The translations under genes and the position numbers were made by a program. Under the pieces are notes generated by a model. The model searched no databases, was not told the DNA's origin, and was given only the letters and a program-made list of their open reading frames with translations. A stretch of 64,000 bases of DNA, from assembly GCA_964617645.1 (NCBI GenBank), contig CAZTYE010000002.1, positions 374,648-438,647 on the forward strand. The letters are read 5' to 3'. The stretch comes from an uncultured Ignavibacteria bacterium. Its GTDB lineage: Bacteria; Zixibacteria; MSB-5A5; CAIYYT01. This document shows, piece by piece, positions 4,431-62,565 of the stretch (positions are counted from its first letter, which is position 1; each line of letters opens with the position of its first letter).

Positions 4431-5102
4431 CTATCCCTCGAGATGCGACCTTTCGATGCCGAGAATGATGCGCAGCGATGTCGACACGATACCGAGCGCG
4501 ATTCCGATCTTGATGGCGCGCTGTCCGGCGGTGTGCGGGAAGTTCATAATCCAACTCGCCCAGTCGGAAGACTGAAAGCCTTGCGGCATCCACGAAGTGA
4601 GCATATCTCCAAGCGGCACGCGGCCCAGCATCACCAAGAAACCGGCGATTAGCAGTAGCGTGGCCTGCAAGTTGCGCGCCCGGAACGCGCGATACGACGC
4701 GGACGCCACATAGAACGCCAGAATCGCGAACATTGTCGCCGACAACGGTGTGTAAACGAAAGTATATAGCCAGTCGAAATGCGTGCCCGGATCGCGGAAC
4801 GATGTCGGCGGTTCGTTTTGCAGACCATTGTAGCCGTCAATGAACCCGACGATAACCATCAAAAGGAAGCACACCACGACGACAATCGCCAACTGCCACT
4901 CGTGAGACTTCCGCGAAATCTTGGTGAACGACATCTTCATCAGGTTGAGCGCGCCCAACCAGATCGCGAACGACGCGACTATCGTAAACCACTCGTTGTA
5001 GTAGCCCTCGAGTTCACTGAACGGAGTATGCGGAATGAAGTACGAAAGGACGAAAACCAGACCAACAACGAGGGTGATAATGATTGGGACTTCGCGCCGC
5101 AT
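4431..5102 (-). CDS. Cassette component B, first copy: polytopic membrane protein.
   Basis: 223 aa; paralog of 880..1554. 1-nt gap to the C gene. Confidence 0.6.
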   Translation of the reverse strand: MRREVPIIITLVVGLVFVLSYFIPHTPFSELEGYYNEWFTIVASFAIWLGALNLMKMSFTKISRKSHEWQLAIVVVVCFLLMVIVGFIDGYNGLQNEPPTSFRDPGTHFDWLYTFVYTPLSATMFAILAFYVASASYRAFRARNLQATLLLIAGFLVMLGRVPLGDMLTSWMPQGFQSSDWASWIMNFPHTAGQRAIKIGIALGIVSTSLRIILGIERSHLEG

Positions 5103-5115
5103 TCTCTATCGCTTC

Positions 5116-6348
5116 CTACTGAACCTGAACAATTTTTAGGATCTCATGCCAGCCAAATCCAACAGCCACGATCATGGCCAATATTATGTAGATCAGAAAC
5201 GCAGCTTTGGCGAAGTCCTGCCCTTTGAGCGAACCGAGCAATTTCGGCTCGCGCGCCAGATACGCCGACGCCGCGAAGAGTTCCTCGCCAATCAACGTGT
5301 AGTCGCAAGACGCCACAAAGAACGGCAATTGCGACGGCTGACCGGTACCGGCGATTTGAATCGCGCCGGCGGCATTGCCGGTTTCGGCGAGAATCAGCGA
5401 TTCGGCAAAGAAGGCGCCCATGTAAAACATCGTCGCAGGCTTGTCGCGCACGACCATGCCGTCGATGGCGGCGGCATAACCGAATTGGTCGTCGGTGACA
5501 TAGTGCACTTGATCTTCGCGGAAGGCATCCGGTCGGCCGGCCTTCTGGTAGGCCTCGCGAACAGCCTCCCGTCCGGTCACCATTACCAGCGACTTGCAGA
5601 CCGGCACATCGAGCATCGTGTCGTTCTCAGCGGCGATTTTCGCGACGCGACCAAGAATCGTAATTGCGGCGATTGTCTGCACATCGTCCATATCCTGAAT
5701 GCCAGGAATGAACATCACCTTGCGACCCATTTCGGTCGCGCGTCCGATGGCTTCTTCAACCGCCTCGATGCCGGCGATCCTGCGAACGTATAGCTCCTTG
5801 CCCGACTTGGCAATCTGGATGTAGATCAGAATTGCGCCGCAGATGATCAGTGTCCACAGGAAGATCCAAATTCGATTGAGATTAAACCACTGCGCGCTCG
5901 GCGCCACCGGACCAACAACCACTGATGCCGCAGCCGAGCTTAAGGCGCCGTCGGCTTTGTCCGGTGCGAATACCGCAACCACCTTATAGAAATAACTCTG
6001 TCCATCAACTAAATCGCCGTTCGTGAAACTATTCTGCCCCTGGGTCGTCTCCCCGATCACTGTGAAATCGCTATCGGCGGAATTGGCGCGCATGACCTGA
6101 TACTTGGTCACAGCGGATACGTCGTCCGGCGACAAGTCCCAGCGAATCTCCAAGCTCGTCCCATTGTCGTAGGGAGTGTCTTTAACGATAACATTCGCCG
6201 GCGGCGCCGGAACGGGAATAGTCGGAATCGCCGTTGTGACTGCTGTTGTGTCGTTGGCTGGTGGGGTATCTACTTGACCAAAAACGGAAAGATAATGAAC
6301 GAGGACGATGGCAAAGCTCAGGCTGATCAGCGATTTCAAGCCGCGCAC
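5116..6348 (-). CDS. Cassette component A, first copy: signal peptide, Fn3/Ig-like domain, TM, conserved cytoplasmic domain, C-terminal TM.
   Basis: 410 aa. N-terminal hydrophobic leader, Thr/Pro-rich linker, beta-rich segment (YQVMRANSADSDFTVIGETT...YFYKVVAV), TM (IWIFLWTLIICGAILIYI), then the domain shared with 1560..2789. Confidence 0.6.
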   Translation of the reverse strand: MRGLKSLISLSFAIVLVHYLSVFGQVDTPPANDTTAVTTAIPTIPVPAPPANVIVKDTPYDNGTSLEIRWDLSPDDVSAVTKYQVMRANSADSDFTVIGETTQGQNSFTNGDLVDGQSYFYKVVAVFAPDKADGALSSAAASVVVGPVAPSAQWFNLNRIWIFLWTLIICGAILIYIQIAKSGKELYVRRIAGIEAVEEAIGRATEMGRKVMFIPGIQDMDDVQTIAAITILGRVAKIAAENDTMLDVPVCKSLVMVTGREAVREAYQKAGRPDAFREDQVHYVTDDQFGYAAAIDGMVVRDKPATMFYMGAFFAESLILAETGNAAGAIQIAGTGQPSQLPFFVASCDYTLIGEELFAASAYLAREPKLLGSLKGQDFAKAAFLIYIILAMIVAVGFGWHEILKIVQVQ

Positions 6349-39509: not shown

Positions 39510-39640
39510 GAGGGCTGTTGAAAAGCCCTATGAGCTGTCACCCTGAGCGGAGCGAAGGGTCTGTTATCCTTGTGTCGCATCGGAAAACAGATTCTTCGCT
39601 TCGCTCAGAATGACATGAATATGGCTTTTTCAACAGTCCC
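39510..39640. repeat. Dispersed ~135-bp imperfect-hairpin element, copy a (MITE/REP-like).
   Basis: ctgttgaaaagccctatgagctgtcaccctgagcg...gaagggtctgtt...aacagattcttcgcttcgctcagaatgacatgaat...tttttcaacagtc. Termini and internal segments are mutually complementary. Lies in the convergent intergenic region between 37336..39381 and mscL. Confidence 0.75.
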
Positions 39641-47020: not shown

Positions 47021-48691
47021 TTATACGTCGCGACGCGCGACAATCTCGGCGTCGAGAATCTCAATGGCCTGCGCCACCATCGGGTGCGCCGTTTTGTCGG
47101 CGTCGGTAAACAGAGCCGCCTTGCTGTCGGTCGCAGTCATCTGAACCTTTGGCGCCCAACCGGGATCAACAAAGAAGTGGAGTCGCAACTCGCGTCCCGC
47201 CACGTCGCGGATTACTTGCTCCAGCGTTTGTTGAATGCTGCGATCCTGGAAATAACGCACGTGAACCTCGCCCAGCCGGTCAAACGCGACGGAAAAGCGG
47301 TTGCCTTCGATGGACCGGGGCTGCGCCAATGTCAGCTTGATCTGCAGACTGCGGTGGCGAGGTTTGAGCGCCTGCAAAAATCGATCCCACAACGACGCGG
47401 CGCCTTCGTCGGAATCTGGTCCCGCCATTGTGCCGCCGTCTGCGGCGGCATTGTTCGAAGGAAGCGCTGCAACTGCGGCCGGCGCCGTAGTCGCCGGCGC
47501 TACAGGCGCCGATTTTTTTTTCGCTTCGGCCGCTTGCGCGTCGAAGGGCACCGCTGACGGTTGCGCACCGGAAAGCGTCTTCAGTATCGCTTCAACGCTG
47601 ACTGTCGCTTCCATCTGCACCAGTTTGAGCAATGTCAACTCGAGATTGATCACCGGTTCGAAACCGTCGCGGATTTTCCCCTCCAGATCGACCAGCACTT
47701 GCTGAATTCTCAGCAGATCCCCGATCTCGTAGTCGGCAGCGCGCGCTTTGTAATCGGCGGATTCTTCCGGCGTCACGCCGTAATCGGCGCCGATATCCGG
47801 CGCGGCTTTGAACACCAACAGAAACCTAACTTCTTCCTGAAATCCGCGGACAAACTCCGCCGCGCTGACTCCGGCGCGCAGGACTTCATCGACCCGCTGC
47901 AGGAGTGCGGCGGAATCCCGATCGCGAATCTTGATCAGCCAATCCCGATACTCGCTGCGCGGCAAAATTCCCAGCGCCTGCGTAATGAGCGCGAGATCGA
48001 TCTTGTCCTGTTGCCACGACGCCACCTGATCGAGAATCGACAGCGCGTCACGCAAACTGCCGTCGCCGCGTCGCGCCAATTCGGCAACGGCGTCGTCCGT
48101 AACCGTCAGATTCTCTTTTTCGGCTATCCCTTTGATCGCGCTGCGCAGTTCCGATTCCGATATCCGCCGGAAATCGTAACGTTGGCAGCGCGACAGAATC
48201 GTCTGCGGCACCTTCTGCGCCTCGGTTGTCGCAAAGACGAACACGGCGTGCGCCGGCGGTTCTTCGAGAGTCTTCAGCAGCGCGTCAAATGCCGAACCGC
48301 TCAAGCGATGCACTTCGTCGATAATGTAGACTTTGTATTTGCCGCCGACCGGTGAGTACTTGATCGCCTCGCGCAACTCGCGCACGTCATCGACCGAAGT
48401 ATGCGACGCGGCGTCGATTTCGAGAATGTCCAGCGAGCGGCCTTTGATAATGCCGAGGCACGATTCGCAGGCGTCGCACGGTTCCGCGCCTTGCGGGTTC
48501 GCGCAATTCAACCGCTTCGCCAGAATCCGCGCGACCGTCGTTTTGCCGGTCCCCCGAACGCCGCAAAACAAATAGGCCTGCGCGATGCGGTCATGTTCAA
48601 TCGCCCGCGTCAAAGTCTCGGTGATATGGCGCTGCGCCAGAACTTCCGCAAACTTTTGCGGCCGGTACTTGCGGGAAAAAACGTAATAGCT
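47021..48691 (-). CDS. dnaX: DNA polymerase III subunit gamma/tau.
   Basis: Start at MSYYVFSRKYRPQKFAEV. Walker A GVRGTGKTT, zinc module CANPQGAEPCDACESC, SRC box TILSRCQRYDF. Confidence 0.85.
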   Translation of the reverse strand, partial: SYYVFSRKYRPQKFAEVLAQRHITETLTRAIEHDRIAQAYLFCGVRGTGKTTVARILAKRLNCANPQGAEPCDACESCLGIIKGRSLDILEIDAASHTSVDDVRELREAIKYSPVGGKYKVYIIDEVHRLSGSAFDALLKTLEEPPAHAVFVFATTEAQKVPQTILSRCQRYDFRRISESELRSAIKGIAEKENLTVTDDAVAELARRGDGSLRDALSILDQVASWQQDKIDLALITQALGILPRSEYRDWLIKIRDRDSAALLQRVDEVLRAGVSAAEFVRGFQEEVRFLLVFKAAPDIGADYGVTPEESADYKARAADYEIGDLLRIQQVLVDLEGKIRDGFEPVINLELTLLKLVQMEATVSVEAILKTLSGAQPSAVPFDAQAAEAKKKSAPVAPATTAPAAVAALPSNNAAADGGTMAGPDSDEGAASLWDRFLQALKPRHRSLQIKLTLAQPRSIEGNRFSVAFDRLGEVHVRYFQDRSIQQTLEQVIRDVAGRELRLHFFVDPGWAPKVQMTATDSKAALFTDADKTAHPMVAQAIEILDAEIVARRDV

Positions 48692-48780
48692 CATGCGCTC
48701 TTTGATTGCCTCGGTGAACGGTAATCGCCGGGGAAGGAAACAGACCAGGCTTCCCCGCGGCACATGAAGACGATCACCTG

Positions 48781-48811
<31 letters not shown>

Positions 48812-48941
48812 GGCGCGTTTGCATTGCGCGGGACCTGGTCAGTTTCAGACTTCCCCGGCGCCAAGCGATAATACCGCGACGACGGCGGCGAGTCAATCGC
48901 CAAATTCCCCTTACTCCCGTATAGATGAAGATCATCTTGCG

Positions 48942-49007
48942 CACATACGGTGTAGCGGCAGGAATCACTCCGGCTCACACAGTGCGGCGGCAGGAATCAC
49001 TCCAGCA
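48942..49007. repeat. 32-bp head-to-tail tandem repeat, array 1 (2 units).
   Basis: Units cacaYagtgYRgcggcaggaatcactccRgcW directly abutting with no spacers. Confidence 0.8.
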
Positions 49008-49009
49008 CA

Positions 49010-49148
49010 CGGGACTGTTGAAAGAGTCCTATAGGCTGTCACCCTGAGCCGCTGCGCAGGCGAAGGGTCTGTTGGTATTGCTGCACAAGGCCAAGCAGAT
49101 TCTTTGCTGCGCGCAGAATGACATAAATTAGATTTTTCACCAGTCTCA
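49010..49148. repeat. ~135-bp imperfect-hairpin element, copy b.
   Basis: cgggactgttgaaagagtcctataggctgtcaccctgagccgctgcgcaggcgaagggtctgtt...agattctttgctgcgcgcagaatgacataaattagatttttcaccagtctc. About 97% identical to copy c. Confidence 0.75.
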
Positions 49149-49276
49149 CACACTGTGCAGCGGCAGGAATCACTCCGGCTCACACAGTGCAGCGGCAGGA
49201 ATCACTCCGGCTCACACAGTGCGGCGGCAGGAATCACTCCGGCTCACACAGTGCGGCGGCAGGAATCACTCCAGCA
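49149..49276. repeat. 32-bp tandem repeat, array 2 (4 units).
   Basis: cacactgtgcagcggcaggaatcactccggct repeated 4 times with point variants. Spurious ORFs 48965..49183(-) and 49234..49440(-) in the track are translations of these repeats. Confidence 0.85.
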
Positions 49277-49277
49277 C

Positions 49278-49416
49278 ACGGGACTGTTGAAAGAGTCCTA
49301 TAGGCTGTCACCCTGAGCCGCTGCGCAGGCGAAGGGTCTGTTGGTATTGCTGCACAAGGCCAAGCAGATTCTTTGCTGCGCGCAGAATGACATGAATTAG
49401 ATTTTTCAACAGTCTC
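49278..49416. repeat. ~135-bp imperfect-hairpin element, copy c.
   Basis: Near-identical to copy b. Confidence 0.75.
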
Positions 49417-49578
49417 ACACAGTGCGGCGGCAGGAACCACTCCGGCTCACACAGTGCAGCGGCAGGAACCACTCCGGCTCACACTGTGCGGCGGCAGGAA
49501 TCACTCCGGCTCACACAGTGTAGCGGCAGGAATCACTCCGGCTCACACAGTGCGGCGGCAGGAATCCCTTCCTGCCGC
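49416..49578. repeat. 32-bp tandem repeat, array 3 (about 5 units, last unit degenerates into a perfect 10-bp-stem hairpin).
   Basis: Units with aacc/aatc variants. Terminal gcggcaggaatcccttcctgccgc forms gcggcaggaa/ttcctgccgc. Confidence 0.85.
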
Positions 49579-49747
49579 GTTTCGGGCAGTCAGGAAAAGA
49601 TATCTAACCGCGCAGCATTGAACCGTCCAAAGCATTTCCATTGTTCTACTTTCGGCGAGCGAGTTAGTCCTTGATTTCCCTCGCTCCCCTTGATAATTTC
49701 TTCACTAACTTTCGCTCGGGGCGGCGAATGCACTTAAGGAGTCGAAG

Positions 49748-51265
49748 ATGTCTTCTGAACAACGTCGCTTGCCGAAATTGACATACAACTGGATCAGCGC
49801 GCTCGGCGCCTTCATCGCCGTCGCAATGGCGCTGGTGCTGGTCGTGATGTTGATCATCAATTTCACCCTCGAACAGACCGGCGCCTATTTCGGCATCTTC
49901 CTCTATATGGTGCTCCCGGCCATTCTGATTTTCGGCCTGCTTCTGATCCCGGTTGGCATGCTCCGCACCTGGCGGCGCTGGAAAAAGGGCGACAAAGTCG
50001 AAATCCCGACTTGGCCGCTGATCGACCTCAATCGCCGCGGTCATCGCAATGCGACCATTGTCTTCATCGCCGGCACCGTGCTCTTCTTGGTGATTACGGC
50101 GGTCGGCAGCTATGAGGCCTACCACTATTCCGAGTCAGTAGAATTCTGCGGCACGACTTGTCACACCGTAATGGAGCCGCAACATACCGCCTATCAGGGT
50201 TCGCCGCACGCGCGCGTCGCCTGTGTCGAGTGCCATGTCGGCACCGGCGCCGGCTGGTACGCCAAATCCAAGCTTTCCGGCGCCTATCAGGTCTACGCGA
50301 CCATCGCCAATGTCTACCCGCGTCCGATCCCGACTCCGATTCGCGATCTGCGTCCGGCGCGGGAAACCTGCGAAGAATGCCACTGGCCGCAGAAAACCTA
50401 CGGCATCGCGCTGCGCAGCTTCACCCATTATCAGTACGATGACGCCAACTCCAAGTGGACTACCGATATGCGAATCATCACCGATACCGGCGAACCGCAT
50501 GAAGGCCAGAAGGCCGGCATTCATTGGCATATCAATCCCGATGTCACGGTCGAGTACATCGCCCGCGACCGGCAGCGCCAGGACATCCCCTGGGTGCGGG
50601 TCACCGAAAAGTCCTCGGGCAAAGTTACCATCTACGAAGACGAATCCAACCCGCTCGATAAATCAGCTCTCGACACACTCGAGGTTCGCGTGATGGACTG
50701 CATCGATTGTCACAACCGCCCGAGCCACGTCTACCGGCCGCCGGATTACGCCGTCGACCGTGCGATTCAATCCGGATTCATCGATCGGTCACTGCCCGGC
50801 TTCAAAGCCGTCGCCGTCGAAGCGATGGCCGGCGAATACGAAACCAAAGATCAGGCGCTCTCGGCGATTTCGACGCGGATCAACGATCACTATCAGGCGG
50901 CCGGTTTGCTCGGCGACCCGGCCAAGCGCCAAGCGGTGCAGTCTTCAATCGCCGGCGTACAGGCGGCCTTCCGGCAGAACATCTTTCCGGAAATGAAAGG
51001 GATGTGGAAACACTACCCGAACAACATCGGCCACTTCTCCGACAAAGGCTGTATGCGCTGTCACATGGGCACGCACAAAAGCGCGGCCGGCGCGGTGATC
51101 ACTCACGATTGCAACGCCTGTCACACGATCCTGGCGCAAGGCCCCGAGGGCGCGATTGTCCGCGATTCGACCGGACAAGGCCTCGAGTTCAGGCATCCGG
51201 TCGACATCGACGAAGCCTGGCGCGAAACCGGCTGCTTCGACTGCCACACTGGCGTGCAACCGTAA
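49748..51265 (+). CDS. Inner-membrane multiheme c-type cytochrome, ImcH-like / NapC-NirT superfamily (7 heme-binding motifs).
   Basis: 505 aa. Two N-terminal TM helices. Six CxxCH (CVECH, CEECH, CIDCH, CMRCH, CNACH, CFDCH) plus one CX3CH (CGTTCH). Confidence 0.65.
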   Translation: MSSEQRRLPKLTYNWISALGAFIAVAMALVLVVMLIINFTLEQTGAYFGIFLYMVLPAILIFGLLLIPVGMLRTWRRWKKGDKVEIPTWPLIDLNRRGHRNATIVFIAGTVLFLVITAVGSYEAYHYSESVEFCGTTCHTVMEPQHTAYQGSPHARVACVECHVGTGAGWYAKSKLSGAYQVYATIANVYPRPIPTPIRDLRPARETCEECHWPQKTYGIALRSFTHYQYDDANSKWTTDMRIITDTGEPHEGQKAGIHWHINPDVTVEYIARDRQRQDIPWVRVTEKSSGKVTIYEDESNPLDKSALDTLEVRVMDCIDCHNRPSHVYRPPDYAVDRAIQSGFIDRSLPGFKAVAVEAMAGEYETKDQALSAISTRINDHYQAAGLLGDPAKRQAVQSSIAGVQAAFRQNIFPEMKGMWKHYPNNIGHFSDKGCMRCHMGTHKSAAGAVITHDCNACHTILAQGPEGAIVRDSTGQGLEFRHPVDIDEAWRETGCFDCHTGVQP

Positions 51266-51450
51266 ACGAGCGCTAGCACACCAGGATCTGCCGGACTCAC
51301 CGGTCGGGAATCTGGACTGACGCCCGCCTGTCAAGTCTGAAGTTGTCCCGGGTTTCGGCTCATACCCCCAATTCCGATCAGATTACGCTGAATAATCCAT
51401 TTTGAGGTGTATTCTTGTCCCCAAAATCTCCCCAACCGATCCCTAAAGTT

Positions 51451-51466
51451 TGTGATGTTTTTCACG
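51451..51466 (+). promoter_or_regulatory. CRP/FNR-family site, distal.
   Basis: tgtgatgtttttcacg = TGTGA-N6-TCACg (9/10 to CRP consensus TGTGA-N6-TCACA). Confidence 0.4.
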
Positions 51467-51568
51467 ATACTATTCAACAAGATGCGAATACATGACAATT
51501 TCATGACAGTTTTTGTTGACCGAGTGTCTGAAACACAATAGTATGCGCACGATATCATGGAGGACTTT

Positions 51569-51584
51569 TGTGACAGTTTTCACA
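51569..51584 (+). promoter_or_regulatory. CRP/FNR-family site, proximal (perfect consensus).
   Basis: tgtgacagttttcaca = TGTGA-N6-TCACA, about 60-75 nt upstream of the decaheme start codon. Consistent with a class-II activator position. Confidence 0.45.
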
Positions 51585-51645
51585 AACACGCTGGCGGCTG
51601 TCACAGATGACAAAGATGGACTTCATACTCTTTCACGGGGTTAGT

Positions 51646-52599
51646 ATGCATAGACACCTAACGAAACCAACCCCGCTAATTCTGTGCATCACCACGACAT
51701 TGCTGATCGCTTTTATCGCCCTTGCCGGCCCCCCATTGTGGGCCGAAAACGGCGAAAGCGACGCGCAGTGTCTCGAGTGCCATCAGGATATGGCGGACAA
51801 TCTGGTTGACGGCAAACACGCACTGACCAAACCCAAAGGCGGCGAACGAATCGCGGTGACCTGCATCGGCTGTCACGGCGACTGGGAGAAGCACATGGAC
51901 GACCCGGAAGCCCACAAGCCGATCGTGCCGTCCAAGCTGCCGATCATTAGGCAAGCCGATGCCTGTGCTTCGTGCCATCAGAACGAGCATCAAATGACGA
52001 TGATCACGACTGATCCGCACAGTCGCAGCGGCCTGCCCTGCTCAAGTTGCCATAAGATTCACGACAACGTCAATGCCGCATCGCTGATCGATGCCGAAGG
52101 CAACTTCTGCCTGACCTGCCACCAAACGGTCGGCGCGCAGTTTGCGTCCCGTTCGGCGCATCCGCTGCACGAGGGTAACGTGCAATGCAACGATTGCCAC
52201 CCGATGAACGACCGCAAGGATCACCAACTCGCGCTCGGATTCGACTGGACCTGTCAGACCTGTCACGCCGAAGTCGCCGGGCCGTTCGTTTACGAACACC
52301 CGGTCAGTTACAATCATCTCGTGCAGGGTGGCGGTTGTGTCGAGTGCCACAGTCCGCACGGATCGCCGAATGAACGGCTGCTGAATCAGCCGGGCAACGG
52401 CGTCTGCTTGCAGTGCCATGGCGTTCCGCCGGGGCATCGCACCGCCCATTCCGGCATGGCGGTCAAAGTCGACTGCGTCAATTGTCATACCGACATCCAC
52501 GGTTCAAATGACAATCGCCTCTTCCTTGACCCGATGCTGACGACCACCTTCTACGCCAACTGTTATGCCTCGGGCTGCCACGACAATTTGAAGAAATGA
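51646..52599 (+). CDS. Periplasmic decaheme c-type cytochrome (MtrA/DmsE-like).
   Basis: Signal peptide from MHRHLTKPTPLILCITTTLLIAFIALAGPPLWA. Ten CxxCH motifs (CLECH, CIGCH, CASCH, CSSCH, CLTCH, CNDCH, CQTCH, CVECH, CLQCH, CVNCH) plus a C-terminal CX4CH. About 320 aa like MtrA. Confidence 0.7.
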   Translation: MHRHLTKPTPLILCITTTLLIAFIALAGPPLWAENGESDAQCLECHQDMADNLVDGKHALTKPKGGERIAVTCIGCHGDWEKHMDDPEAHKPIVPSKLPIIRQADACASCHQNEHQMTMITTDPHSRSGLPCSSCHKIHDNVNAASLIDAEGNFCLTCHQTVGAQFASRSAHPLHEGNVQCNDCHPMNDRKDHQLALGFDWTCQTCHAEVAGPFVYEHPVSYNHLVQGGGCVECHSPHGSPNERLLNQPGNGVCLQCHGVPPGHRTAHSGMAVKVDCVNCHTDIHGSNDNRLFLDPMLTTTFYANCYASGCHDNLKK

Positions 52600-52610
52600 G
52601 GAGAACGATC

Positions 52611-54167
52611 ATGAAGACGCTTAAGCTATTCAGTATCGCGGCGATGATCCTTCTTCTCGGCGTATCCACTTCATTCGGAGCCGGCGGATCCGGCGAGGTC
52701 AAGATCGGATACGTCTATCTCGACGAAGAAGGCAACCAGTCGTCGTACCATCCGACATTCAACCTCTACGAAGGCCCGACCTTCTCGCTGGAAGGATTCC
52801 GCTATCGTTTCGATAACGGTCTCTTGCTGCGCGCCAATCTCGAGAATGTGATCATGAACAATCGCAACTTGAGCGCGTCGCTGTCCAAGCCGGGTCTTTT
52901 CGATCTGCGCGTTGGGCATGACCAGTTCCGCCGCATCTACAGTTTCGATGAGTCCGCCTACACGCGCCGTCACACCGAGCGCGCCTCGCTATCGGTGTAC
53001 GTGCTGCCGCAAATAGAAGTGTTCGGTGGCCTGTTGATGCAGGAACGCACCGGCAAGTCGGAGGATCTTTTCGACCCCAAACCGGTGGCGCGCACCGTCG
53101 AAGTCGACTACCAGCGCATGTTCTTCAATGCCGGTTTGCATGTCTTCCACCACGGCTCGACGATCACCGGCGAGTATCGCGGCGATCAGTTTACCGACAA
53201 CCGCTCCAGCGCTCGCGATCAAATGCGCAGCGAATTCCGTCTCGCCGGTCTGATTTCGATCCCGCGGTATAGCTGGATCAAAGCCGTCGGCGGCTTCCGT
53301 CATTACGAGACGAAATTCGACGAGAGCGACTTCGGCATCTCCAACAACCGCGGCTACGGCGGCGGTCTGGTGCTGCTGCCGCAGAATGTCTCGGTCAAGT
53401 ACGTCGGCGTGCTCGACCGCACCTCGTCCGATTCCGATTTCGTCGCCACTGATAACATGACGCATTCGGGTTATGTGTCCTGGGAAAAGCCGCAGAAATT
53501 CGGCTTCACCGCCGGATATCAATTCGATGTCAACGACGATTACGAAGACGAAGTTCGCGCTAACTCCAGCTACTTCAGCTTCTGGTCAAAACCGGCCAAG
53601 GGCTTCGAGTGGCGCGGCGAGTACGGCATGCGCAAGGAGGAAATCGAGGACGGCGTCCGCCTGACCGGCGACGAGGAATACAACCGTCATCGCACCAGCG
53701 CCAAGTATCGCCACGAAAAGTACGGTTCGATCGGCGTCAAGTGGGACAGCCGCGAGCGCGACAACGACCAGCTCGGCTCGTCGCTCGATATGAACCGTTT
53801 CGGCATCGACGGCGTGCTCTTGGTCGAGAAATACGGCCATATCAATGCCGGGTATGTTTACGGCAAAGGCGAATACGAAAACCGCGAGGCGATGTTCGAG
53901 TTCACCGATCATCTCGTCTTCGGCGATGTGACGACCAAGGAATACAAGGGCGTCACGCTCGGCGGCGGCGCTTTGTACTACCGCAGCAGGCGCGATCTCG
54001 ATGTCGAACACTTCAACGTGCGCTTGACCGGCGCGCTTCGCTTCTATCAGGACTATCGTCTCGAGGTCGAATACAACGCTTACAATTTCGATGACTTGCT
54101 GGTGCTGGATGAGTACTACACCGGCAATGTGGTTCAGATAAGTTTGATCAGAGGATTATCGTTCTAA
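52611..54167 (+). CDS. Outer-membrane beta-barrel porin (MtrB/PioB-like partner of the decaheme cytochrome).
   Basis: Signal peptide MKTLKLFSIAAMILLLGVSTSFGA. Alternating-hydrophobicity strands throughout. C-terminal ...VQISLIRGLSF with terminal Phe. Start overlaps the upstream stop. Confidence 0.6.
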   Translation: MKTLKLFSIAAMILLLGVSTSFGAGGSGEVKIGYVYLDEEGNQSSYHPTFNLYEGPTFSLEGFRYRFDNGLLLRANLENVIMNNRNLSASLSKPGLFDLRVGHDQFRRIYSFDESAYTRRHTERASLSVYVLPQIEVFGGLLMQERTGKSEDLFDPKPVARTVEVDYQRMFFNAGLHVFHHGSTITGEYRGDQFTDNRSSARDQMRSEFRLAGLISIPRYSWIKAVGGFRHYETKFDESDFGISNNRGYGGGLVLLPQNVSVKYVGVLDRTSSDSDFVATDNMTHSGYVSWEKPQKFGFTAGYQFDVNDDYEDEVRANSSYFSFWSKPAKGFEWRGEYGMRKEEIEDGVRLTGDEEYNRHRTSAKYRHEKYGSIGVKWDSRERDNDQLGSSLDMNRFGIDGVLLVEKYGHINAGYVYGKGEYENREAMFEFTDHLVFGDVTTKEYKGVTLGGGALYYRSRRDLDVEHFNVRLTGALRFYQDYRLEVEYNAYNFDDLLVLDEYYTGNVVQISLIRGLSF

Positions 54168-54179
54168 GAGGAGGTTAGT

Positions 54180-55265
54180 ATGAAAGTCCTTAACGCACTA
54201 TTAATCGTCATGTTGGTGGCCGGAATGGCGCTGCTCTCAGGATGCGAGCGCAAGATCGTCAATGAAGTCGCCAACAACGACCAGTCGCTGCTCGGTTGCT
54301 TCGGCTGCCACGGCGAAACCAGTTTCGACGGCGCTCTGCAGCAGGCGCGCGGCGAATGGGAAAACTCGTTCCATGCTTCGGGCATCAGTATCGACTACAC
54401 GAACCGCCCCGGTTCGGACTGTCAGCAATGCCACAACCATCAGGGCTTCCTCGATTGGCTGGCGACCGGCGAAGAAGACTCACTGGCGCTTGGCACGGTC
54501 AGCGCGATCCACTGCTTCACCTGCCACGCTCCGCATGAACGCGGCGATCTGACGCTGCGCGTAACTGAGCCGTACACGCTGAAGAATGGCGTCGTCTTCG
54601 ATCATGGCGCCGCCAATCTCTGCGTACAGTGTCACCATTCACGCACGAGCATCGCGACTGATATCGCCGGCGGCGACACGTTGCGCTTCATTCCGAGTTC
54701 AAGAATGGGCCCGCATCATGGACCGCAAGGCGACAATCTGCAGGGTACGCACGCCTTCCAATTCGGCGCTACGCCGTATGCAAGCTCGACCCACGCGACC
54801 GTCGTTCGTGACGGCTGTATCGGCTGCCACATGGGTAATCCAACTCAGCATGACGGTTACCAGATCGGTGGCCACAGTTTCAATATGCAATTCGAATCCC
54901 ATGACGGAACGACCTATACTCTCGTCGGCGTCTGTCAGTCCTGCCATGCCGGCTACGCCGGTAAGAGCACATTTGATGATGCGACCGTGTTCAATAAGGA
55001 CGTTGATGGCGACGGCGTAGTCGAAGGTATCCAGACCGAATTCGACGGTCTTCACGACTCGCTCGGCGTTTTGTTAGCCAAAGTGATCAACCCGGCGACC
55101 GGATTGTTCCGCACGAATGTGAAAGTCACTCGCGGACAGCAAGGCGCGGCGTACAACTGGAAGATCTACGACGAAGATCGCTCGCGCGGCATGCACAATC
55201 CGAAGTACTTTGAAGCAATGCTCAAGGCCTCGATTGCGCACATGGTTGCCAATCCGATTCCGTAG
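54180..55265 (+). CDS. Outer-membrane lipoprotein hexaheme c-type cytochrome.
   Basis: Lipobox LLSGCE. Six CxxCH (CFGCH, CQQCH, CFTCH, CVQCH, CIGCH, CQSCH). Confidence 0.65.
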   Translation: MKVLNALLIVMLVAGMALLSGCERKIVNEVANNDQSLLGCFGCHGETSFDGALQQARGEWENSFHASGISIDYTNRPGSDCQQCHNHQGFLDWLATGEEDSLALGTVSAIHCFTCHAPHERGDLTLRVTEPYTLKNGVVFDHGAANLCVQCHHSRTSIATDIAGGDTLRFIPSSRMGPHHGPQGDNLQGTHAFQFGATPYASSTHATVVRDGCIGCHMGNPTQHDGYQIGGHSFNMQFESHDGTTYTLVGVCQSCHAGYAGKSTFDDATVFNKDVDGDGVVEGIQTEFDGLHDSLGVLLAKVINPATGLFRTNVKVTRGQQGAAYNWKIYDEDRSRGMHNPKYFEAMLKASIAHMVANPIP

Positions 55266-55330
55266 ATTCGTCCCTCCCGGCGACGTAGCTTTCAGGTTGC
55301 GGCCGCCTTTTGTTAGAGCGTTTCAAGACA

Positions 55331-55367
55331 ACCCTTCGGGTCGCCCGACCCGAAGGGTTTTTGTTTG
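55331..55367 (+). terminator. Rho-independent terminator of the cytochrome operon.
   Basis: acccttcgggtcgcccgacccgaagggtttttgttt: 11-bp GC-rich stem plus T-tract, 66 nt after the stop at 55265. Confidence 0.7.
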
Positions 55368-55518
55368 CCCTACACTCGATCGGAACGGCGCGGCGCCCAA
55401 ATGATGGCTCCGGCAATTGCTGGAGTGCCACATCGGAAGGGACGCTTGAAAAAGTCAGTGAATCACTCAATGTGAGGCGGCAAGAGTCCTTTCCTGCCGC
55501 AACTGAAGCGGTCAGTCA

Positions 55519-55643
55519 AGTCAAGTAGGTCAGGAGCTCTGCGCTCCTGACATCACGCCGCAGGCGTGATAATCGTGGGCGCGAATTCACACCGTCCCCC
55601 GCTTTCGAGGCCGAAGGCCGCGCAATGCGCCAACGTCGCATTC
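55519..55643. repeat. ~125-bp direct repeat, copy 1 (copy 2 at 55786..55910, about 85% identical).
   Basis: agtcaagtaggtcaggagcYctgcgctcctgacatcacgccgcaggcgtgaYaatcgtgggcRcgaatt... Contains hairpins gtcaggagc/gctcctgac and tcacgcc/ggcgtga. Confidence 0.7.
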
Positions 55644-55785
55644 CCACTATTTCTGTTGCGCAGAGTCTTCCGAGTACCGCGTGCGGGACGAGGGCGACTC
55701 GGCGCCCTCACTCCCACCACTCTGGTGGGGCACCAAAAGGTCTCGACGACCCCCGATTCCGTCATTCCGGCGAAAGCCGGAATCC

Positions 55786-55910
55786 AGTCAAGTAGGTCAG
55801 GAGCCCTGCGCTCCTGACATCACGCCGCAGGCGTGACAATCGTGGGCACGAATTTACATCGTCCCGCGCTCCAGCGGCCGAATGCCGCGCAATGCGCCAT
55901 CGGCGCATTC
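55786..55910. repeat. ~125-bp direct repeat, copy 2.
   Basis: See copy 1. Confidence 0.7.
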
Positions 55911-55931
55911 TTCGGCGGCGCAGCCGCTTCA

Positions 55932-55992
55932 ATTCCCCTCTTGAGAGGGGTGCTGTCCCGCACCATCGGTGCGGGATGGCGGGGTGTGTCAC
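55932..55992. repeat. Palindrome-rich ~60-bp element, second copy of 12795..12854.
   Basis: attcccctcttgagaggggtgctgtcccgcaccatcggtgcgggatggcggggtgtgtcactc. Confidence 0.7.
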
Positions 55993-56114
55993 TCGCGGGC
56001 GCATCGTCCCGCAAAGCGCAGGTCCTTCGGCCATGTGCTCCCACGCGCCACACTGCCCGTCGCGCAGGGGCGCTTCGCGCCGTGCCTTGCCCTTGTCATC
56101 CGTGCCCCACCGGA

Positions 56115-56246
56115 AGGGACAGTTGAAAAAGCCCTATAGGCTGTCACCCTGAACGAAGTGAAGGGTCTGTTTTCCTTCTGGCACAACGGCAAACAGATTC
56201 TTCGCTGCGCTCAGAATGACATGAATCCGGTTTTTCAACAGTCCCG
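56115..56246. repeat. ~135-bp imperfect-hairpin element, copy d.
   Basis: gacagttgaaaaagccctataggctgtcaccctgaacgaagtgaagggtctgtt...aacagattcttcgctgcgctcagaatgacatgaatccggtttttcaacagtcc. Convergent intergenic region between the OM cytochrome and the CoA-binding gene. Confidence 0.75.
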
Positions 56247-56713
56247 GAACGGTGGGATTCCCCCTCTCCCTGTCAGGGAGAGGGGCAGGGGTGAGGGTCA
56301 TTTTCCTCCCCCAACCCCGTAAACTCGTAGCATTCCACTACAATTTTCCCCCATCGGACCCTTAGTAGAGGCACGATTGTAATCGCGGATGATTTCACCC
56401 GCCGATCTCGCCCTCGTACCTGACGTGTTCTTTGGCGGCCGCCATTGTCGTAAAAACGCGAACCGCGGCAGGACAAGGCGTCGAGATCAAATCCAAACTC
56501 CGGTGGCTTGCGACGCCGGTAACCGGATGCGAGAAGATCAACCGCAGTGCAATCGCTTCAGAACCGTCGTTCGGGATTTCCGGAAACGTGACGCTCACAC
56601 TGGGCGCGGCGCAACGTGAAAGTCCGATCAGGCACCTGATTAGCTCGAGCTATGCCCTATTTTTTGCGAAAGGACAAACTTAGCGAGAAACACGAGACTC
56701 AAAGAACCGACAC

Positions 56714-62090: not shown

Positions 62091-62240
62091 ATGAAGCGAA
62101 CATATCAACCTTCGCGGCGGAAACGGAAAAACGATCATGGTTTCCGCGAGCGGATGTCAACCAAGAACGGCCGCAAAGTTCTGGCGCGTCGCCGCCGCAA
62201 AGGCCGTCACAAACTTACGGTTTCCGACGAGCGACATTAG
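62091..62240 (+). CDS. rpmH: 50S ribosomal protein L34.
   Basis: Not in the ORF track (49 aa). Manual translation [49 protein letters not shown] matches the L34 consensus MKRTFQPS..R.R.HGFR.RM.T..GR.VL..RR.KGR..L. Confidence 0.9.
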
Positions 62241-62259
62241 TTTTGGCCGCAATTGCCGT

Positions 62260-62565
62260 TTGGCGGATGACGCGCTCATTCGCCGGACGTTGCGCTATGG
62301 CAGCAAACGCGAAAGCGATAATCTTCGCCTGCAGATCCTCCCGACACCGGAATCGGAGTGTCGCTGGTGTCTTCGTGTTCCCAAACAACTGGGCAACTCC
62401 GTGGCCCGCAACCGCCTGCGCCGCCTGATGCGCGAGTTCCTGCGCCATCATCGGCGGCTCTGGCCGCAGAATTCTGCCGCCGTTCTCACGGCTAAGCCGG
62501 GGGCAAAGTTAATTGCCCCGGACGAATTGGCGCATGAACTGGGGACATTGTTAAGCAATGAATAA
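62260..62565 (+). CDS. rnpA: RNase P protein component.
   Basis: In frame with track ORF 62137..62565. Must start after the rpmH stop; the first candidate start is TTG at 62260. RnpA motif [23 protein letters not shown]. Confidence 0.6.

Follow-up and report, generated by a model that had tools for sequence, protein, structure and literature searches.

Between dnaX and a divergent cytochrome operon, in the stretch of DNA analysed here (64,000 nucleotides, hereafter the window), a repeat cluster spans ~640 bp in total and comprises 11 head-to-tail units of 32 bp, distributed in arrays of 2, 4 and 5 units, with two 137-bp hairpin elements between the arrays. Such an ordered tract in front of a respiratory operon raises the question of whether it acts upon the genes at its sides or is simply repeat DNA that accumulated between them. 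The second answer is in our opinion the probable one: a mosaic of non-coding repeats that is peculiar to one lineage, selfish or neutral, and built by slippage, insertion and unequal crossing-over.

Organization of the locus

The main features of the locus, including signals conserved in two relatives (L015 and L016, see below), are the following:

48740-48840, minus strand: SRP RNA gene ffs (Rfam RF00169, 65.5 bits, E = 3.1e-12, full-length model match)
48896-48868, minus strand: ffs promoter, TTGACT-17-TATTAT (consensus scan, 10/12)
48943-49006, plus strand: array 1, two units (read directly in the sequence)
49007-49010, plus strand: ACAC, left target duplication of element b (ACAC again at 49148-49151, directly after the element)
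49011-49147, plus strand: foldback element b, 137 bp, with terminal inverted repeats GGGACTGTTGAAAGAG / ATTTTTCACCAGTCTC
49038-49070 (plus) and 49097-49122 (minus): inverted modules of 26-33 nt in element b
49148-49275, plus strand: array 2, four 32-bp units (TRF 49149-49279, period 32, 4.1 copies, 95% matches)
49276-49279, plus strand: ACAC, left target duplication of element c (read in the sequence)
49280-49416, plus strand: foldback element c, 137 bp, 135/137 bases as in element b
49417-49554, plus strand: array 3, four full units and the start of a fifth (TRF 49414-49566, period 32, 4.8 copies, 92% matches)
49555-49578, plus strand: terminal hairpin GCGGCAGGAA-TCCC-TTCCTGCCGC (predicted fold)
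49667-49699, plus strand: conserved box GTCCTTGAT and putative cytochrome-operon promoter TTGATT-17-TAATTT (conservation in L015 and L016)

A preliminary description had placed the cluster in the divergent intergenic space between dnaX and the cytochrome gene. The space is not simply that, as the description overlooked the ffs gene, which lies between dnaX and the repeats and upstream of dnaX. The neighbouring genes are thus dnaX-ybaB on one side and cytochromes on the other, where the respiratory operon encodes a NapC/NirT-type cytochrome, a DmsE-family decahaem cytochrome, an MtrB/PioB-like porin and an MtrC-like cytochrome; no candidate regulator gene was found near the repeats among the ORFs of the window. 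The first array starts 46 bp beyond the -35 box of the ffs promoter, and the repeats stop 88 bp before the GTCCTTGAT box proper (49667-49675), upstream of the cytochrome gene. The TTGATT-17-TAATTT sequence, which scores below the threshold of the consensus scan, would be the promoter of the cytochrome operon. Both conserved promoter signals have the repeats on their upstream side, and the tract lies neither between a -35 and a -10 box nor in coding sequence. Besides the ffs promoter, scanning of 48650-49800 gave one weak plus-strand match (9/12) at 48844-48872, ~70 bp upstream of array 1.

The units of the arrays keep a constant period with no spacer (92-95% matches and 0% indels by TRF), and laid out in register they show the 2+4+5 arrangement originally proposed. 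A 26-mer of the unit occurs 8 times at ≤1 mismatch, versus 0 expected from shuffled sequences. Ten of the 11 units are distinct variants; the core GCGGCAGGAA.CACTCC is invariant in all of them, and it is only in the remaining half that they vary. The first unit of array 1 is degenerate, with 5 differences in the 32-bp register that by eye include a 2-nt insertion, and the second one is a CCAGC variant that abuts element b. In arrays 2 and 3, the initial 4 nt are at once part of the array and the right-hand ACAC of elements b and c, respectively. Folding of the arrays is weak (z = -1.0 to -2.2), and the unit shows no dyad symmetry. The 32-bp period is not divisible by 3, the array has all three plus-strand frames open, and its conceptual translation has no homologue among 5.8 billion proteins.

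Searches with an exact or degenerate 24-mer of the unit gave 0 matches in 185,579 species-representative genomes and 0 in the JGI metagenome contigs, and blastn of 48900-49700 against plasmid and phage collections found no match. A looser 20-mer retrieved five single-copy matches on viral contigs, in coding-looking sequence with no tandem structure, which is roughly the number that chance would give for 18 specified bases. Among all collections searched, the 32-bp unit is therefore known from one locus only. Several familiar classes of tandem repeats were also considered and rejected. A CRISPR array is at odds with units that follow each other without spacers and with window ORFs in which no Cas domain was found; an origin of replication, a set of iterons or a sopC-like plasmid centromere does not agree with a flat GC skew (negative throughout the 64 kb), the lack of rep, par or dnaA neighbours and the lack of plasmid or phage matches; and an integron attC site finds here no integrase and no fitting core sites.

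A dispersed foldback element

The hairpin element had been described as a local feature of 135 bp in two near-identical structured copies. The two copies stand (98.5% identity between b and c), but the element measures 137 bp in the cluster and is not local, as two more copies were found in the window:

39512-39640, plus strand: dispersed copy a, between convergent genes (GWxTD-domain protein and mscL), CTTG/CTTG flanks
56116-56245, plus strand: dispersed copy d, downstream of the porin-cytochrome operon, GGAA/GGAA flanks

Copies a and d share 74-83% identity with b and c. There are, then, four copies of 130-137 bp within 64 kb with differing flanks, located between convergent gene ends as well as between divergent promoters. 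Long hairpins are predicted for elements b and c (-58 kcal/mol, z = -4.4), and the fold of copy a reaches a z of about -10.4 to -11.6. All of them carry terminal inverted repeats of 15-16 bp, with GGGACWGTTGAAAAAG at both ends in 4/4 copies, and alignments of the flanks show that similarity among copies ends where the inverted repeats end. Duplications of 4 bp abut the element exactly in the case of ACAC (b and c) and GGAA (d), and CTTG (a) shows a 1-nt offset on the left side, so that target-site duplications are seen from three independent insertions only, one of them with this offset. When the empty sites were reconstructed, 3/3 independent insertions gave small hairpins whose loop holds the duplicated bases; unoccupied target sites of the form CCCACNG...CNGTGGG are absent from the window. 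Altogether, these features mark the hairpin element as a dispersed foldback of MITE/REPIN-like type.

No reading frame stays open in every copy of the element, and no transposase or RAYT (PF01797-type) was detected among the 51 window ORFs, from the 64 kb of the genome covered. A peptide from the element gave no candidate in a word-indexed protein search and 6 matches in an exhaustive phmmer search, and typical peptides of such spurious ORFs (LRCAQDD and similar) led to nothing relevant in the literature. The locus has in this regard some value for annotation: spurious ORFs are called over the elements, ffs was overlooked, and assemblies may be unreliable here.

An inverted pair of 26-nt modules

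The core of the element is an inverted pair of 26-nt hairpin modules, GTCAYYCTGAGCGNAGCGAAGRRTCT. The predicted hairpin of the module combines a covarying stem of 5 bp with tandem G·A pairs and, at its centre, a GCGNAGC 'mini-hairpin' with a GNA triloop. In all module-like matches the free NN/NN positions are complementary, with five pair types, and one further pair covaries from G-C to A-T. An inverted pair of one CC-type and one TT-type module is found in every window copy and in copies from Chloroflexia. Modules with identical anchors occur in metagenome-assembled genomes (MAGs) labelled Chloroflexia, Armatimonadetes, Pirellulales, Sedimentisphaerales, Christensenellaceae and Zixibacteria, and across these phyla it is the internal module pair that is conserved and not the termini of the element.

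As in REP sequences, the module is a short extragenic palindrome whose inverted pair forms a hairpin. REPs, on the other hand, are characterised by a conserved 5' tetranucleotide of the GTAG type that is recognised by the RAYT protein, and the module starts with GTCA; moreover, its presence in several phyla departs from the lineage-specific, vertically inherited families of the REPIN-RAYT kind. We found no description of the 26-nt module in the searchable literature. The presence of GUC and CUGA...GAA in the module prompted a comparison with hammerhead-like ribozymes, but by eye the module has neither the CUGANGA core nor stem I, and Rfam gave nothing.

A proposed path from a single hairpin to the present cluster

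The perfect hairpin with a 10-bp stem previously noticed at the close of array 3 was recovered, with 49555-49564 pairing with 49569-49578 around a TCCC loop. The last 32-bp unit runs straight into it, and the 5' arm of the hairpin is the final part of the unit. A related sequence was detected elsewhere in the window:

55476-55500, plus strand: paralogue of the terminal hairpin, GGCGGCAAGAGTCCTTTCCTGCCGC (3 mismatches, 0 such expected; similarity reaches the flanks)

As in the 32-bp unit, this paralogue has GAATCACTC upstream, in the order GAATCACTC, GTG.GGCGGCA.GA.TCC.TTCCTGCCGC and G.CAGTCA.G. The palindrome CAGGAA...TTCCTG is present again in the hairpin paralogues, and array-free single copies of the hairpin adjoin gene ends on three metagenome contigs. 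The terminal hairpin is thus likely the ancestral single-copy sequence from which the 32-bp unit was amplified, and, judging from one diverged paralogue, the unit appears to derive from the 5' flank and the 5' arm of the hairpin.

A later event is recorded at a larger scale. Positions 48941-49155 and 49210-49424, 269 bp apart, are 96% identical, which confirms that a higher-order unit of this cluster was duplicated; the duplicated 269-bp segment consists of four units, one element and the 4-bp duplication. Elements b and c share the same altered unit at their left flank (CCAGC-ACAC), and some unit variants are common to several arrays. This common left-flank variant, the variants spread across arrays and the 269-bp duplication argue for unequal exchange, and it is as history that the cluster deserves the term recombinogenic that it had received.

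The two relatives help to place these events. No closer relative is present in the collections than L015 and L016, whose DnaX proteins are 69% and 66% identical to that of the window, and in both of them synteny is kept, with a cytochrome gene (505 and 503 aa, respectively) divergent from ffs-dnaX. Between dnaX and the cytochrome gene they have 503 and 329 bp of intergenic sequence, versus 1053 bp here, and the 32-bp array is absent from the orthologous spacer in both. The GATAATA and GTCAATC motifs of the ffs promoter are invariant in L015 and L016, and so is GTCCTTGAT, at an equal position relative to the cytochrome start. Since these conserved promoter signals lie ~60 bp apart in the relatives and ~770 bp apart here, the repeats can be seen as a lineage-specific filling placed outside both divergent promoters.

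With these data, a history can be proposed. The starting point, seen in part, would be a terminator-like hairpin, GAATCACTC ... GTGCGGCGGCAGGAATC-CCTTCCTGCCGC, in a spacer of ~60 bp. GGAATC occurs twice, 32 bp apart, and replication slippage between both copies may have duplicated the 5' flank together with the 5' arm, after which the array would have grown by more slippage or unequal exchange. As read from the anatomy of the insertion, the 137-bp foldback then entered a small CAC-ACA-GTG hairpin at a unit junction, making the ACAC duplication; insertion in a small hairpin matches the other copies of the element, which sit in loops of small hairpins. Finally, unequal crossing-over between 32-bp units doubled the 269-bp block, with point mutations arising afterwards. 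As side effects, the promoters would have been pushed apart and substrates for more recombination provided. The locus would in this way offer a clean, datable case of repeat accretion in a poorly known phylum, where a minisatellite arose from a hairpin flank and was followed by loop insertion and unequal exchange.

Alternative explanations

The most likely function for the cluster is none, as expected for selfish or neutral DNA, because it lies outside both promoters and gives no coding, RNA-family or strong array self-structure signal. A regulatory role would nevertheless be compatible with some of its traits. A strict 32-bp period corresponds to about three helical turns, the GCGGCAGGAA.CACTCC core is invariant, the promoter boxes are 46 and 88 bp away, and CAGGAA...TTCCTG recurs in the hairpin paralogues, all of which could be accommodated by a phased protein-binding platform where each unit is a half-site (for example CAGGAA, an arm of the CAGGAA-N4-TTCCTG terminal hairpin) and a regulator or nucleoid protein controls, insulates or titrates the divergent promoters. 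We find this unlikely, as the spacer of L015 and L016 has no array, the unit was found nowhere else in the collections searched and has no dyad symmetry, there is no candidate regulator gene nearby, and recent amplification makes repeats look 'conserved' without any selection. A broader variant, where the module would be a functional motif across phyla (e.g., the hairpin recognised by a widely transferred HUH/Y1-type system of single-strand mobilisation, or by a conserved host protein) and the array a phased platform affecting the extracellular-electron-transfer operon, seems to us similarly doubtful. If the module has a dedicated mobilising enzyme or a host partner, it would belong to a broadly distributed system. 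That the tract might be a phase-variable or contingency locus, with gain or loss of units or of 269-bp blocks switching the porin-cytochrome operon, follows from its tandem structure and past unequal exchange, which show that length can change, and from its position upstream of a respiratory operon. Contingency loci typically use units of 1-7 bp, compared with the 32 bp found here, and the fact that 10/11 units differ indicates an array old enough to have collected mutations rather than one in rapid turnover. Moreover, the whole tract precedes the conserved promoter box and falls neither in the -35/-10 spacer nor in coding sequence, with distances of 46 bp to the ffs -35 and 88 bp to GTCCTTGAT. 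The preliminary suggestion of a phase-variable region next to the respiratory promoter thus finds no support, and we give it hardly any credence.

Two further readings, both of them very improbable in our opinion, concern the reality of the second block and the nature of the elements. The contig is apparently of metagenome style, with no close relative in the collections, and the longest exact internal repeat (170 bp) exceeds typical short-read k-mers, so that an error of assembly would affect the number of 269-bp blocks more readily than any other feature; the second block could then come from mis-joined repeats or strain variants. But the blocks differ at 2 element positions and at several unit positions, and are bounded by different unit variants, specific differences that an assembler loop would not invent. 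Moreover, the contig reaches 488 kb, and the tandem arrays and the copies of the element found elsewhere in the window do not depend on this join. As for the elements, and possibly the arrays, being structured RNA genes (either sRNAs or cis-regulatory RNAs), the very stable predicted folds and the base-pair covariation of the 26-nt module across phyla would fit, but the target duplications point to DNA transposition, and copies occur at convergent gene ends and divergent promoters alike. No Rfam family matches the elements either: the best hit in 48850-49750 is an animal miRNA model with E = 2.4, and in the whole window no family other than the SRP RNA reaches the gathering threshold. These results, together with the lack of any terminator-like site in 48650-49800 and with G·U-compatible positions that are split between strands and favour neither of them, speak against the small RNA that had been envisaged from the hairpin.

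Comparison with known repeat systems

The element shares with REPINs its dispersed extragenic copies and the two inverted short imperfect palindromes that make one long hairpin. REPINs also occur as ordered tandem repeats with flanking sequence, in clusters of >700 bp (Bertels & Rainey 2011, PMC3116915), and here too element and flank are tandemly repeated, with the 269-bp block doubled in a cluster of ~640 bp. Differences are found, besides the GTCA start and the spread over phyla already mentioned for the module, in the outer terminal inverted repeats and 4-bp duplications of the element and in a window with no RAYT gene. Bacterial MITEs such as Correia/NEMIS, RUP and ERIC are alike in size (130-137 bp here), lack of coding capacity, terminal inverted repeats, short direct repeats, dispersed copies and stable foldback. 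However, the 51 window ORFs gave no cognate autonomous IS, and for ends bound by a transposase one would expect the termini, and not the internal module pair, to be conserved across phyla.

The cluster as a whole recalls the BIMEs of E. coli and the NIMEs of Neisseria, where palindromes and other short motifs form ordered intergenic mosaics, often between operons, although its sequences are unrelated and its non-palindromic part is a spacer-less 32-bp tandem array instead of fixed linker motifs. Like minisatellites or VNTRs such as the mycobacterial MIRUs, the arrays consist of non-coding units of tens of bp, repeated head to tail between genes and differing by point variants, but MIRUs are dispersed over many loci and often translationally coupled in operons, whereas the 32-bp unit was seen at one locus only among the sequences searched. 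Mosaics of the BIME/NIME type are targets for the insertion of other elements, and five IS families target REP hairpins (PMC1525189). Insertion into small palindromes, as proposed for the foldback, has its counterpart in IS1397/ISKpn1 (IS3) and IS621/ISPpu9 (IS110) (PMC1525189), with the difference that the inserting element is in this case a non-autonomous foldback of 137 bp.

A repeat cluster in a divergent-promoter spacer

Reading of the sequence confirmed the repeat cluster at 48942-49578 as laid out in the preliminary description, which had placed it between dnaX and an ImcH-like cytochrome gene. The cytochrome side of this placement holds, but on the other side the SRP RNA gene (ffs), located upstream of dnaX, intervenes, which makes ffs and the cytochrome gene the actual neighbours of the repeats:

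48740-48840, minus strand, full-length bacterial small SRP RNA (ffs; Rfam, 65.5 bits, E = 3e-12)
48896-48868, minus strand, near-consensus promoter-like site of ffs, TTGACT-17-TATTAT
49149-49279, period-32 array, 4.1 copies, 95% matches, no indels (Tandem Repeats Finder)
49414-49566, period-32 array, 4.8 copies, 92% matches (Tandem Repeats Finder)
49748-51265, NapC/NirT-type cytochrome gene

Further products of the cytochrome operon are a DmsE-family decahaem cytochrome, an MtrB/PioB-like porin and an MtrC-like cytochrome, and together these downstream genes look like a porin-cytochrome electron conduit. The next-best homologue of DnaX is only 69% identical, and the homologues that carry names are Zixibacteria. 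Through DnaX homologues we found two relatives, L015 (GCA_964584025, 69% identity) and L016 (GCA_964268095, 66%), where a NapC/NirT-type cytochrome of 505 and 503 aa, respectively, is divergent from ffs-dnaX. Both also keep the gene order ffs-dnaX-ybaB as well as the promoter boxes. The dnaX-to-cytochrome intergenic region measures 503 bp in L015, 329 bp in L016 and 1053 bp here, and its alignment revealed two conserved blocks: GATAATA...GTCAATC, which corresponds to the ffs -10 and -35 on the other strand, and GTCCTTGAT, upstream of the cytochrome gene. These blocks are ~60 bp apart in both relatives, whereas here the first ends at 48897 and the second starts at 49667; the cluster and ~130 bp of unique sequence are therefore a lineage-specific filling of the divergent-promoter spacer. 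Judged from the aligned blocks, the cluster is outside both predicted promoters. The module of the interleaved element (see below) was not found at the L015 or L016 locus. A replication origin at the cluster was rejected, the GC skew being uniformly negative.

The 32-bp arrays and their origin

An in-register layout gives 11 units in the 2+4+5 arrangement already proposed: the pair of array 1 begins at 48943 and 48975, the set of four in array 2 at 49148 and the set of five in array 3 at 49415, and the final unit of array 3 runs on into the terminal hairpin. The latter has the perfect 10-bp stem attributed to it (49555-49564 pairing with 49569-49578) and a TCCC loop; the arrays show no convincing self-structure (folding z = -1.0 to -2.2). 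A unit-derived 26-mer occurs eight times at no more than one mismatch, versus none in 100 shuffles. Ten of the 11 unit sequences are distinct, their variation being confined to the CACAGTGCGGCGG half and a single T/C position, and the core GCGGCAGGAA.CACTCC is invariant. Most inter-unit differences (48943-49578, unit positions 11-12) are transitions at one CpG, from GTGCGGC to GTGCAGC or GTGTAGC, a pattern that would be expected from deamination of methylated cytosine and that could alternatively come from a simple hotspot or from a shared ancestral variant spread via exchange.

Searches with the 32-bp unit gave no match in genome contigs, metagenome contigs or plasmid and phage collections, no further copy elsewhere in the window and, after translation, no protein homologue; matches on viral contigs were single and due to chance only. 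A diverged paralogue of the terminal hairpin occurs at 55476-55500 (3 mismatches in 25 bases; 0 expected), keeping the motif order GAATCACTC, GTG.GGCGGCA.GA.TCC.TTCCTGCCGC and G.CAGTCA.G, and three array-free single copies of the hairpin adjoin gene ends on metagenome contigs. The single-copy ancestor that we infer held GGAATC twice at 32-bp distance (GGAATC-ACTCCGGCTCACACAGTGCGGCGGCA-GGAATC-CCTT), a pair that would have supplied the microhomology for slippage duplication of exactly the observed 32-bp unit.

A foldback element with probable insertion in hairpin loops

The near-identical elements between the arrays are indeed present, although each is 137 bp long and not 135 bp, with 135 of 137 bases in common. 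They are structured, as had been advanced, but not local to this region, since dispersed copies occur elsewhere:

39512-39640, copy a, between convergent genes for a GWxTD-domain protein and mscL; module pair at 39537-39614
49011-49147, copy b, in the cluster; module pair at 49038-49122
49280-49416, copy c, in the cluster; module pair at 49307-49391
56116-56245, copy d, downstream of the cytochrome operon; module pair at 56143-56220

Copies a and d are 74-83% identical to those of the cluster, and all copies fold as long hairpins (z = -4.4 to -11.6). Similarity between copies is bounded on both sides by a terminal inverted repeat of 15-16 bp, GGGACWGTTGAAAAAG. Immediately outside these termini we find the direct repeats ACAC/ACAC in b and c and GGAA/GGAA in d, as well as CTTG/CTTG in a, where the left side has an additional base. 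When empty sites were rebuilt by deleting the element and one copy of the flanking repeat, the three resulting sequences (CCCACAG-CTTG-CTGTGGG, CCCACCG-GAA-CGGTGGG and GCACA-CAC-TGTGC) all folded into small hairpins whose loop contains the duplicated bases. On this sequence anatomy, the element is a putative non-autonomous foldback transposable element inserting into hairpin loops, a preference with precedent in insertion sequences that target REP hairpins (PMC1525189). No transposase, RAYT, integrase, Cas, Rep or Par protein was found among the 51 window ORFs examined.

The claimed duplication of a ~270-bp higher-order unit is supported by a 215-nt stretch recurring at 269-bp spacing with 96% identity. 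Elements b and c both interrupt a unit altered in the same way (CCAGC-ACAC, shortened by one base relative to the consensus CCGGCTCACAC), and they share the ACAC duplication and differ at only two positions. The element therefore inserted once, after which unequal exchange between units duplicated a block of 269 bp (137 + 4 + 4 x 32). Variants common to several arrays (CA at positions 11-12 in 2 and 3, TA in 1 and 3, CTGTG in 2 and 3) point to further exchanges.

A recurrent 26-nt module

Each arm of the element contains one 26-nt module, GTCAYYCTGAGCGNAGCGAAGRRTCT, the left always of the CC/GG form and the right always TT/AA and inverted. The left-module pattern was found at 14 loci in species-representative genomes (L001-L014), nine of them from one Chloroflexia MAG and the rest labelled Armatimonadetes, Pirellulales, Sedimentisphaerales, Christensenellaceae and Zixibacteria. 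Chloroflexia copies repeat the CC plus TT inverted doublet, yet with different outer inverted repeats. With both dinucleotides left free, 41 of 44 matches were complementary (CC/GG 23, TT/AA 12, TG/CA 3, and GC/GC, TC/GA and CT/AG 1 each, the sole GC/GC match not being module-like); the three non-complementary ones were two chance matches in window coding sequence and one overlapping a true module. A further inner pair covaries, being G-C in 22 modules and A-T in 13. The implied hairpin has a 5-bp stem, two tandem G·A pairs (inferred by position), a 2-bp stem and a GNA loop, and the GCGNAGC at its centre is identical to the exceptionally stable DNA mini-hairpin (PMC13037366). The module has no name in Rfam, and no description of a cross-phylum 26-nt module with covariation was found in the searchable literature.

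The peptide read across copy d, used as query in an exhaustive phmmer search, gave six ORF calls. In two (P0122 and P0123) the complete doublet is present, together with its loop and the outer GTTGAAAAAG region, and three (P0121, P0124 and P0125; gene-caller ORFs of 194-318 aa with periods of roughly 30-90 aa) extend over related modules arrayed in tandem in other genomes. Together with locus L018 (1518-1600), where a sister module, CGTCATTGCGAGGAGCGTAAGCGACGTGGCAATCTCC, occurs as two directly adjoining copies, these arrays indicate that tandem amplification of hairpin modules is recurrent. Translation of the module yields recurrent spurious-ORF peptides (..VTLSEAKGL.., ..ILRCAQND.., ..RFFASLRMT..).

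The element matches the architecture of REPINs, where two inverted REPs form a hairpin as the module pair does here. Moreover, the repetition of element plus flank is exactly that of the ordered tandem REPIN clusters, including flanking sequence and exceeding 700 bp, reported by Bertels and Rainey (PMC3116915). Full membership fails, however, on three counts: the module lacks a GTAG-type 5' tetranucleotide, its family is not lineage-specific, and no RAYT gene was found among the 51 window ORFs.

Function and alternative explanations

No evidence of function was found for the cluster. Since it lies outside both promoters, is absent from relatives, is non-coding, matches no RNA family and is unique in sequence, we consider it probably selfish or neutral repeat DNA of the origin proposed here. 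A phased protein-binding array would agree with the 32-bp period (about three turns) and the invariant core; both, though, are explained equally well by recent amplification, and such a binding array is unlikely. Still less credible is an assembly artefact in block number, for which the longest exact internal repeat (170 bp) could be invoked and against which the block-specific differences speak; that the repeats are RNA genes deserves just as little credence. The phase-variable region envisaged in the preliminary description is disfavoured by its position and by the divergence between units, and is the least probable of these readings. Minisatellites, MITE/REPIN-like foldbacks, hairpin insertion and tandem clusters of element plus flank all belong to known types, to which this cluster adds a new example from an under-studied phylum.

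Other repeats and genes in the window

Downstream of the cytochrome operon, a non-coding, repeat-rich 1.45 kb (55266-56713) holds the terminal-hairpin paralogue, copy d and an isolated left end of the foldback element whose 14-nt flank is shared with copy d (55425-55454 versus 56102-56131, 87% identity), besides a 128-bp direct repeat composed of several small hairpins (55516-55643 and 55783-55910, 267-bp spacing, 89%) and a GTCATTCCGGCGAAAGCCGGAATCC module at about 55762-55786. The porin-cytochrome operon (49748-55265) is flanked on both sides (49280-49578 and 55425-56245), in the same orientation, by the foldback element and the GGCGGCA.GA.TCC.TTCCTGCCGC hairpin. In L015 and L016 synteny covers only its first gene (505-aa cytochrome), the three that follow being different; the Mtr-like genes may therefore have been acquired later or be prone to repeat-mediated loss.

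Elsewhere, 1047-2325 and 4583-5851 reveal the tandem duplication of a gene block about 3.5 kb long (about 73% DNA identity), with a pair of DUF6754 paralogues among the genes concerned (1560-2789 and 5116-6348, both minus strand). The gene rnpA (RNase P protein; 62137-62565, plus strand) lies near the window end, 13 kb from the repeat cluster and unrelated to it. The GC skew climbs towards zero by the window end (-0.008 in the last 4 kb), and a replication origin might be situated just past it.
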